64,000 bases of DNA from Eledone cirrhosa (taxonomy: Eukaryota), in the NCBI GenBank assembly GCA_964016885.1, contig OZ024740.1, positions 219,170,001 to 219,234,000 of the forward strand, written 5' to 3'. Within the stretch, counting starts at the first letter, position 1, and each line of letters starts with the position of its first letter. The notes beneath the pieces were generated by a model. It did not search any database and had not been told where the DNA came from. It saw only the letters and a list, made by a program, of their open reading frames with translations. Below, one piece after another: positions 7,842-10,770 of the stretch. A program made the translations under genes and the position numbers.

Positions 7842-8101
7842 AACATATGATGAGATGCAGAGTGGGTATAGTGAAGGATTGGGATTCTACACCTTTAATA
7901 TATATATATATATGTATATATAAGTATGTATACGTACATACATATATGTATACAGACGTACCATGCACACATATATATATGTACGTATGGATTCACCAAA
8001 CATTTATTATAATGCTCGGTGTGTTTGTAAACAAACATCCCGAATTAAGCCGTAGTGTCTCGCAGCTACCGTTGCTCGTTTGTTCAACACTGACAAAGGA
8101 A

Positions 8102-8142
8102 CGCTGTACTAGTTTCAAGCTTGTTAGCTATCTTCAGCAACG
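8102..8142 (-). ncRNA. Hammerhead ribozyme motif, family B
   Basis: Reverse complement of 8445-8485. Confidence 0.85.
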
Positions 8143-8444
8143 TATACCTTCCTGCCAGATAGTTGAACGTCCGAAAGTATATACTTTCCTTATGCATATT
8201 ATCGGCTGAGTAGCCCAATTTGCATATCGAGTGGGTTAATCGGCCGGGTGCACCGAAAACGATAAACGGAAAAAATGAAACGAAATTTCATTTCCCACTC
8301 TTAGTACGGCTGTTACTTAAATATAAGTATGTATACATACATACATATATGTATATAGACGTACTGTAGTATGTATATATATATACATACATGCACACAT
8401 ATATATATATATTCGGACGTTCAACTATCTGGCAGGAAGGTATA

Positions 8445-8485
8445 CGTTGCTGAAGATAGCTAACAAGCTTGAAACTAGTACAGCG
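8445..8485 (+). ncRNA. Hammerhead ribozyme motif, family B
   Basis: cgttg-CTGAAGA-tagc taacaa gctt-GAAAC-ta-GTA-cagcg. Confidence 0.85.
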
Positions 8486-9032
8486 TTCCTTTGTCAGTGT
8501 TGAACAAACGAGCAACGATGGTTGCTAGACACTACGGCTTAATACGGGATGTTTGTTTACAAACACACCGAGCATTATAATAAATGTTTGGTGAATCCAT
8601 ACGTACATATATATATGTGTGCATGTATGTATATATATATATATACATACTACTGTACGTCTGTATACATATATGTATGTACGTATACATACTTATATTT
8701 AAGTAACAGCCGTACTAAGAGTGGGAAATGAAATTTCGTTTCATTTTTTCCGTTTATATATGTATAGTCCGGGGAAAAACATCCAGGAACACACACACAC
8801 ACTCACACACAACGCACACACACACACACACATGCACACACACGCACACAGACACTTACACTATTTTCGCACCACGCAACCATACATCAACACACACACA
8901 CATATATATATTCATTAATTAAGCAAATTCACATGAAAGACGTTAGTTAAAGAGTGTCAACATAGTTGCATTTTAATGTAAGGAATAAAGTGTCAACATT
9001 AATTGCAGTTTAATGTAAGGAATAATAATATC

Positions 9033-9157
9033 CGTTTACAATTGTTTCACTACTCCATATAATGTTTCTGGATCAATCGATTATTAGATCGTTATTGATC
9101 TGGTTCAGAGAAAGATAAGTAACTTAAGTAATATTATAGAGCAGTTCTTCAGCACGT
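9033..9157 (-). ncRNA. Hammerhead motif, family C, with greatly extended stem II
   Basis: Minus strand: cgtg-CTGAAGA-actgctctata...tatggagtagt-GAAAC-aatt-GTA-aacg. Confidence 0.7.
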
Positions 9158-9646
9158 CAGATGAGGTAATGAAAATATTGAAATAGATAAAATGAAATAA
9201 GAAATATAAAATAAAATAAAATAAAATAGGAATCTTACGGACACGTAACCCTCTTACTTTATTTTATTTTATATTTCTTATTCCATTTTATCTATATCAA
9301 TATTTTATATATATGCACACACATATATATATATTATATATATATATATATATATATATATATATATATATATATATATATATATATATATATATATATA
9401 TATATATATATATATATATATATATATATATATATATATATATATATATATATATAAGTTGTAATATAATGAAACGAAATTTCATTTCTCACTCTTAGTA
9501 CGGCACTTACTTAAATGTAAGTATGTATGTATACGTACATACATATATGTATACAGACGTACAGTAGCAAGCATATATATATATATATATATATATATAT
9601 ATATATATATATATATATATATATATATATATATATATATATACAG

Positions 9647-10313
9647 TAGAATAATCGAGTATCGAAAAATCGGCGCACGAGTTCACGATAAACAAAATTC
9701 GACATGAGTGGCAGAGGGCTCAATAATTCAGATAAATCAGAGCTATAACTATCGTTAAAATACCAACACACATAGATTATGTGTAAAATCAACCATATAA
9801 CCGAAAAATTACGATCAGGAAGATTCGGGTCACTCAGATAAAATATCAATAAATCAATAAATCATGTGAATGTAAAAAGCTTACCCGGACCCACTAGAAA
9901 GATGATAAATCTAGCTTTTTGGGTTTCTGTAAATCCTTAAACTGCCCACTATCAGCCCACATAAAAATATATAAGACTTCTAGAGAGCGGCGGACAGGAA
10001 ATACTTTATCAACGAGCTTTGTCCAGACGAATAAAAAAGGCAACCCTAGCTGAAAACGCACATGGAATCCAGCAAGGGAGATAACCTCTATATCCGCGAA
10101 AAATATTCGGGAATGTGGAAAATCACATATCGAATAAGAGTGCTCAATAGACATGTTAAAATAAACAGGAGCTATTCATCATTTAATAGAATCGACAAAA
10201 AATGAACAATAAAATTAACTGGTCAATAGCTAAGTCTAGAGCTAAATATAGTAGAATAATCGAGTATGGAAAAATCGGCGCACGAGTTCACGATAAACAA
10301 AATTCGACATGAG
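9647..10313. mobile_element. ~604-nt monomer element with terminal direct repeat, nested in a family-B element
   Basis: 'tagaataatcgagtat' at 9647 and 10252; diverged relatives at 50478-51217 and 57705-58444. Confidence 0.65.
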
Positions 10314-10770
10314 TTATAACGCCCGCTTTGTACTAAGAGTGAGAAATGAAATTTCGTTTCATTATATTACAACTTATCGTTTTCGGTACGCCTGGCCGAC
10401 TGAACTCACTCGATATGCAAATTAGGCTGCTCAGCCGTTAATCTTCATAAGGAAAGTATATACTTTCGAACGTTCAACCATCTGGCAGAAGGGTATACGG
10501 TGCTGATGATAGCTAAGAAGCTTGAAACTAGTACATCGTTCCTGTGTCAGTGTTGAACAAAAAGGTGACGTGGTTGCCTTAACACCGTACGGCATAAATC
10601 AGGCTGTCCGTTTGTTTACAAACGGACAAAGCGGGCGTTATAATAAACGTCCGCTAAACTGATACGTACATATATATATGTGTACCTGTATGTATATATA
10701 TATATATATATATGCATGCTACTGTACGTCTGTATACATATATGTATGTACGTATACATACATACTTACA
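10314..10770 (+). mobile_element. Retrozyme-like family B, diverged copy (inverted arm at 9455-9575)
   Basis: Collinear with the 7897-8757 monomer; 10314-10330 is the reverse complement of 10627-10643. Confidence 0.75.
10498..10538 (+). ncRNA. Hammerhead ribozyme motif, family B variant
   Basis: cggtg-CTGATGA-tagc taagaa gctt-GAAAC-ta-GTA-catcg. Confidence 0.85.

Follow-up and report, generated by a model that had tools for sequence, protein, structure and literature searches.

A short non-coding hammerhead repeat with a Penelope-like insertion footprint: a probable non-LTR retrozyme

Animal non-LTR retrozymes are short, AT-rich, non-coding repeats in tandem arrays, each unit with one type I hammerhead ribozyme. 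According to the main description (coral, mussel ~350-390 bp, axolotl 330/350 bp; PMC7229834), the unit RNA is highly self-paired with the ribozyme left free, and the repeats co-occur with Penelope-like elements (PLEs). Mobilisation of animal retrozymes by PLEs has been proposed from co-occurrence and homology (PMC7229834; bioRxiv 10.64898/2026.07.22.740005). In the work on Xenopus retrozymes (Li, Clavereau, Pollet, bioRxiv 10.64898/2026.07.22.740005), PLE dependence is likewise proposed, argued from co-occurrence and pLTR homology; monomers and partial copies are seen as the offspring of arrays, and an active locus is defined by two consecutive units with ribozymes. A review states that animal retrozyme repeats show no motif naming their helper and that retrozymes seem to be without promoters (PMC7761336).

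Two further systems are relevant. Newt satellite 2 has a type I hammerhead with an internally looped long stem I and a palindromic stem III. It carries an snRNA-type promoter with an octamer upstream of the ribozyme. Its cleavage is described as dimeric (PMC6155905). Endonuclease-bearing PLEs carry a minimal form of the hammerhead, and the features described for their insertions are head-to-head arms, an optional tail of 30-40 bp and a bias to microsatellites (PMC8557442, PMC3846280). The tail has been attributed in vitro to two internal start sites of reverse transcription on uncut RNA (PMC11167929).

We analysed a window of 64 kb (the whole stretch of DNA under study), which is rich in (TA)n and contains PLEs. 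Four copies of one repeat, here family B, were found in it. Family B is probably a non-coding, closed-unit type I hammerhead repeat of ~430-455 bases, a non-LTR retrozyme whose four copies were likely inserted into (TA)n by PLE enzymes. The unit is short, non-coding, below 50% GC and has one type I hammerhead, and its 428-455 nt lie at the upper edge of the 150-450 bp range. The predicted folding z-scores of the unit are -6.4 and -8.3, values that are inflated by AT palindromes, and adopting the ribozyme fold within the unit is predicted to cost 1.4-2.1 kcal/mol, linear or circular, which leaves the ribozyme free. Judged by size, composition, ribozyme type and predicted fold, family B would be best filed as a non-LTR retrozyme. 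It differs from the described animal units in being slightly longer, in combining two weakening features in one ribozyme, and in occurring within the window as head-to-head partial copies instead of tandem arrays. No description of family B was found in the literature on cephalopod hammerheads or on head-to-head or tailed retrozymes, a search of the main texts of mostly non-subscription papers; the octopus SINE name Twhb likewise gave no paper.

A strict type I descriptor recovers exactly three sites in the window, at 8137 (minus strand), 8450 (plus strand) and 10503 (plus strand), and none in 100 block-Markov shuffled windows, which bears out the first-pass annotation in its claim of hammerheads on both strands. 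All three copies that span the motif have the core CUGANGA ... GAAA ... UH with three helices and an open stem I; each shows CUGANGA, a 4-bp stem II closed by U·U, GAAA, CUAG and a GUA triplet. The hammerhead domain of copy A occupies 8082-8168 on the minus strand, with an extended stem I, core C3 at 8137 and a predicted cut after 8107 (GUA). That of copy B lies at 8419-8505 on the plus strand, with the core at 8450-8480 and the palindromic stem III ACTAGT at 8474-8479, and that of copy D at 10472-10558 on the plus strand, with the core at 10503-10533. With its internal loops stem I extends to ~23 bp (folding z -2.5 and -3.2). In these respects and in its stem III the motif resembles newt satellite 2, a likeness of description.

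The ribozyme is predicted to be weak. The R10.1-Y11.1 pair that closes stem II is replaced by U·U in all three copies, and this is unchanged among the listed read-archive variants. From A15.1 to U16.1 the sequence is the 6-nt palindrome ACUAGU, with a computed self-duplex energy of -4.8 kcal/mol; a palindromic stem III of this kind is said to require a dimer (PMC4209133). Axolotl HHR_Amex2 shares the U·U base of stem II, and HHR_Amex1 the weak palindromic stem III (PMC7229834). The monomer of HHR_Amex2 was cleaved to 22% in an hour and the dimer better (PMC7229834), and eight of nine Xenopus retrozyme dimers stayed uncleaved in vitro (bioRxiv 10.64898/2026.07.22.740005). As family B joins the U·U base of stem II with a minimal stem III in one molecule, its ribozyme may be nearly inactive. 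An Rfam scan of family B gave no hammerhead model at the gathering score; the best weak match is HH9 at 10489-10551 (18.1 bits vs 52, E 0.7), and the scan likewise misses the two other hammerhead-like motif families of the window. Rfam microRNA matches at low threshold were rejected as AT-repeat artefacts below the gathering scores. Other hammerhead-like motifs are at 11182, 12529, 49945, 54830, 47860, 52766 and 59986. One such family sits behind PLE frames (48589-49523, 53489-54408); in another (47860 etc.) the base of stem II is U·U as well.

The four copies form two composites. Copy A (7918-8412, minus strand) holds ~1.15 units, is 5'-truncated at 8412 and ends 3' in (TA)n at a tail-less end point, end2 (7918). 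Copy B (8412-8757, plus strand) is 5'-truncated and stands head-to-head with A; its 3' end is the tail-bearing end1 (8757), also in (TA)n. Its 5' end at 8412 begins inside the last bases of a conserved 16-bp palindrome upstream of the ribozyme (8173-8188 in A). The second composite belongs to a diverged subfamily. Copy D (10330-10771, plus strand, 442 nt) stops at end2 in (TA)n, and copy C (9454 to ~9575, minus strand), identical to D in 48 of 48 nt, has end1 and a 61-nt tail in (TA)n. The head-to-head junction with D is formed by 18 nt left over from the 5' end of C (10314-10331, minus strand). Between the two parts of C, within its internal (TA)n, lies family X (9646-10314), a 605-nt partial-tandem repeat unrelated to family B; we infer that it was inserted into C later and split the C|D composite. 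The arrangement of ~1.2 monomers followed by an inverted copy, given by the first-pass annotation, agrees with A and the adjoining B, and its inventory of the region is extended here by C and family X.

The same annotation put the monomer at ~402 nt, a length that does not hold. The value of 402-403 is the spacing from 7918 to 8321, where one repeat of copy A has lost ~25 nt. Measured from microsatellite to microsatellite the unit has 428 nt (copies A/B), and from cut to cut 432 nt in A/B and 238+61+156 = 455 nt in C/D. In the sense direction its order is cut site, hairpins H4-H6, an AT-rich hairpin, end2, the 59-61-nt tail, end1, an octamer block, the 16-bp palindrome and the ribozyme. In copy B, H4-H6 lie 3' of the ribozyme at 8511-8592 (plus strand) and the optional 59-nt tail, with an internal hairpin, at 8699-8757 (plus strand). 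Copy A contains an internal copy of the tail (8262-8320, minus strand), which continues directly into the octamer, ATGCAAAT at 8218-8225 (minus strand), and the ribozyme. The unit is thus closed, and circularly permuted. Direct tandem content within the window is limited to the ~1.15 units of copy A.

This closure weighs against reading the copies as what is left of an ordinary autonomous PLE after 5' truncation, its pseudo-LTR plus tail, with no closed non-coding unit. Such ends would explain the insertion layout, which is the same as that of a coding PLE in the window. In both subfamilies, however, the tail meets the octamer and ribozyme side within 155-156 nt, and contig pieces from three read-archive runs cross the same junction: X1 (8165-8317), X4 (8079-8317) and X5 (8134-8294). 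The share of X1 contigs that continue from the tail into unlike sequence is zero. There is also no conserved reading frame, as ORFs of at least 40 aa in family B are microsatellite read-throughs or unshared and no RT or GIY-YIG frame was seen in its copies, and the distant relative described below is likewise short, with a 360-nt unit. We therefore regard truncated PLE ends as unlikely.

The coding PLE itself (22657-26812) offers a comparison. It encodes RT and GIY-YIG (24491-26269), its inverted arm is joined head-to-head, its optional tail measures 41 nt, and it has no homology to family B; no sequence match of family B to PLEs was found within the window. Its frame is split in two (23616-24179 and 24491-26269), and its terminal repeat carries a hammerhead-like motif with C replacing U4 (near 23552 and 26668). 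For the frame at 24491-26269, the only animal-named entries among 120 listed relatives are two from Octopus bimaculoides, with 59% identity over about half the length, which points to a cephalopod host and is no proof of one. Short repeats at 669-1623, 1832-3062 and 13339-13493 have tandem and inverted arms bounded by (TA)n, which suggests further PLE-type insertions. Family X (9638-10314, 50427-51214, 57677-58441) is also bounded by (TA)n and lacks a hammerhead motif; a six-frame translation of 9646-10314 gave no clear frame, and it may be another PLE passenger.

With endonuclease-bearing PLEs family B shares the head-to-head arms, the tail on one arm, the (TA)n flanks and copies that cross the ribozyme cut site. 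An inverted 5'-truncated arm is joined 5' to 5' in both composites, A|B and C|D. B and C end at end1, A and D at end2, the two points being 59-61 nt apart, and all four ends enter (TA)n, with the exact points blurred by TA overlaps of 1-3 nt. In run X1, 59 contigs join end1 (8262) straight to (TA)n; this junction evidence covers end1, as end2 falls outside the aligned part. A candidate 12-bp target duplication flanks A|B (7907-7918 and 8755-8766, plus strand); it is a weak one, since this 12-mer is found 16+9 times across the window, and the flanks of C|D are pure (TA)n. Family B differs from PLEs in having no ORF, in a tail that returns to the ribozyme and measures 59-61 nt against 30-40 nt, and in a ribozyme with full stems I and II. 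It thus appears to carry the PLE signature of inverted arm plus tail and to lack an autonomous PLE frame, which fits the proposal of retrozymes as non-autonomous PLE derivatives.

The predicted cut site lies inside copies A, B and D, and A is longer than one unit. The insertions were therefore likely templated by an uncut multimer or a circle, forms between which sequence alone does not distinguish. No two ribozymes on the same strand stand one unit apart in the window (B to D, 2,053 nt). The loci therefore could not release unit-length RNA, and they fall outside the definition of active loci used for Xenopus. On the retrozyme reading, source arrays elsewhere would be transcribed into highly folded RNA. 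Its weak ribozyme would cut chiefly in dimers formed through the stem III palindrome, and circles may result. Once AT-rich DNA had been nicked by a PLE protein, reverse transcription of an uncut multimer or a circle would start at the two internal sites bounding the tail, and the resulting two cDNAs would be joined 5' to 5'. Structure would be under selection in the source RNAs, and the dispersed copies would decay afterwards.

Selection on RNA structure had been suggested in the first-pass annotation from a covarying stem I, and it finds support here mostly in other evidence. The copy at 10498 does swap U·G for G·U, and N7 and loop II vary in it as described. The swap is weak evidence, as it is one event and 185 of 500 shuffles of the ribozyme domain reach it. 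Both U·G and G·U occur at this pair within the window, and the listed variants include no Watson-Crick form. In run X1 the 3' partner is U in 55% of the depth and the 5' partner G in 22%, so that, provided the same set of copies is read at both sites, an unpaired U·U must be common. This stem I position thus appears tolerant rather than strictly compensatory.

More support comes from the hairpins 3' of the ribozyme, H4-H6, which covary between B and D. Between these two copies (A and D for the palindrome) 13 pairs differ: eight change on both sides, seven of these still pairing, and five on one side, three of these still pairing. The tally was made by hand, walking outward from conserved loops, with the register of one H5 pair uncertain. 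Outside it are two changes in mid stem I that affect one side only, of which one keeps the pairing and one breaks it. If the two sides changed independently at 25-35% divergence (24/94 measured for H4-H6), the chance of 8 of 13 two-sided changes is 1e-4 to 2e-3, a figure for two subfamily states only and for structures read from the same copies. In H6, both sides differ at 3 of 10 pairs and pairing holds in 20 of 20 cells, against 30-45% when slid; 54 of 500 shuffles reach its covariation, in two distinct rows. Near-private changes of copy A at 8061-8067 break H4, as expected of decay after insertion.

Read-archive variants point the same way. In four aligned runs, picked by shared words, 37 variant sites were listed in 341 positions, none of them in the 26 positions of the core, stem II and stem III, and two of the five free positions (N7, loop II) vary. 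The constraint is borderline (P 0.045 for 37 sites, 0.10 for 28 common sites, 0.07 for the single X4 contig), and the counts include 40 of 49 variant rows, so that the nine unseen rows could change the result. As far as these rows go, the neutral-rate substitution of core and stems that the first-pass annotation had named as speaking against selection was not seen.

Part of this could have arisen at the DNA level, if family B spread and covaried as foldback or satellite DNA with template switching in palindromes and the hammerhead were an inert relic. The unit is indeed rich in short palindromes and AT repeats, and palindrome-templated correction can alter both arms without selection. G·U pairs kept or swapped in H6, H4 and stem I are a better fit to RNA than to DNA correction, however, and the variants fall on the free positions and spare the constrained ones; the 5'-truncated arms and two fixed 3' ends are also unlike the terminal inverted repeats of DNA transposons. 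We consider such DNA-level spread very unlikely.

The mirror-image architecture emphasised in the first-pass annotation is real as an inversion and is unlikely to be a two-strand device, since head-to-head copies are a known Penelope-type insertion product. A functional locus with viroid-like plus/minus processing, or with a long hairpin giving regulatory small RNAs, could appeal to the ribozyme motifs on both strands and to the 222-nt arms of A|B, 97% complementary and predicted to form a long duplex in read-through RNA, but it is highly improbable, because each strand has the same single-polarity motif by way of inversion and the unit itself one motif, the predicted read-through fold of either strand buries the core in that duplex, the junctions differ between the composites, one of which is split by family X, and private changes in copy A break H4. 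The inversion by itself accounts for ribozymes on both strands.

Words of the unit occur in 20 of 24 listed read-archive runs, from 16 studies, and half or more of the words in three runs. No RNA run is among those listed with such words, which says nothing about expression either way. The alignments cover X1, X4, X5 and X8 among the 20 word-holding runs, with 12 runs of small share excluded, and gave 10,624, 1, 21 and 13 contigs, respectively; contig depth is not copy number. The X4 contig shares many letters with D, and therefore the D subfamily also occurs outside this genome. The ribozyme-core pattern was found at no locus in viral contigs, none in genome contigs and one in metagenome contigs (L001). 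This hit, L001:753-783, was rejected as a relative, as it matches only the 31-nt pattern itself and has no other homology. L001 seems to have a direct repeat of ~1,070 nt and telomere-like words.

A distant relative lies at 20718-21146 on the minus strand (nhmmer E 5.5e-8). It is a partial tandem in which a tail-like block, the octamer and a long stem I follow in the same order and the core is decayed. Its stem is of different sequence (z -4.7), with two of seven distal stem I pairs changed on both sides and the distal stem kept. An unrelated repeat lies just upstream (21146-21362). The octamer is kept in A, in D (10415-10422) and in this relative. It is not enriched in the window (7 seen vs 5.07 expected), and no proximal promoter element was identified in family B. 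Its survival in the distant relative, the sole support, makes a promoter role a lead only.

A bolder form of the retrozyme reading is doubtful: an old lineage present in many related species, with an octamer-type promoter and a conserved RNA body, whose circular RNA a PLE reverse transcriptase copies from two start sites spaced by 60 nt. Were it true, both a promoter and a PLE recognition signal could be mapped in this retrozyme, neither of which is known according to a review (PMC7761336). The PLE link of family B is an insertion footprint carried directly, with two exact end points, whereas the Xenopus argument is made from co-occurrence and pLTR homology. The footprint thus narrows a candidate signal to 60 nt, of use in the in vitro PLE assay (PMC11167929). 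The choice between a circle and an uncut multimer as template is also posed by copies that exceed one unit and cross the cut site. In other respects family B adds a further abundant repeat to a class already described.

The rest of the window is repetitive. Its LINE frames are ones we take to be RTE-like. Multi-kb duplications of 98-99% identity (47303-50430 = 52210-55317 and 50450-52894 = 57677-60112) contain nested pieces of PLE, LINE and family X. A 29-bp satellite of ~305 copies and a 1.3-kb (CTAC)n array lie at 29484-38311 and 6553-7841, and a tRNA gene with a GUU anticodon (21984-22057, Rfam 63.4 bits) adjoins AT repeats.
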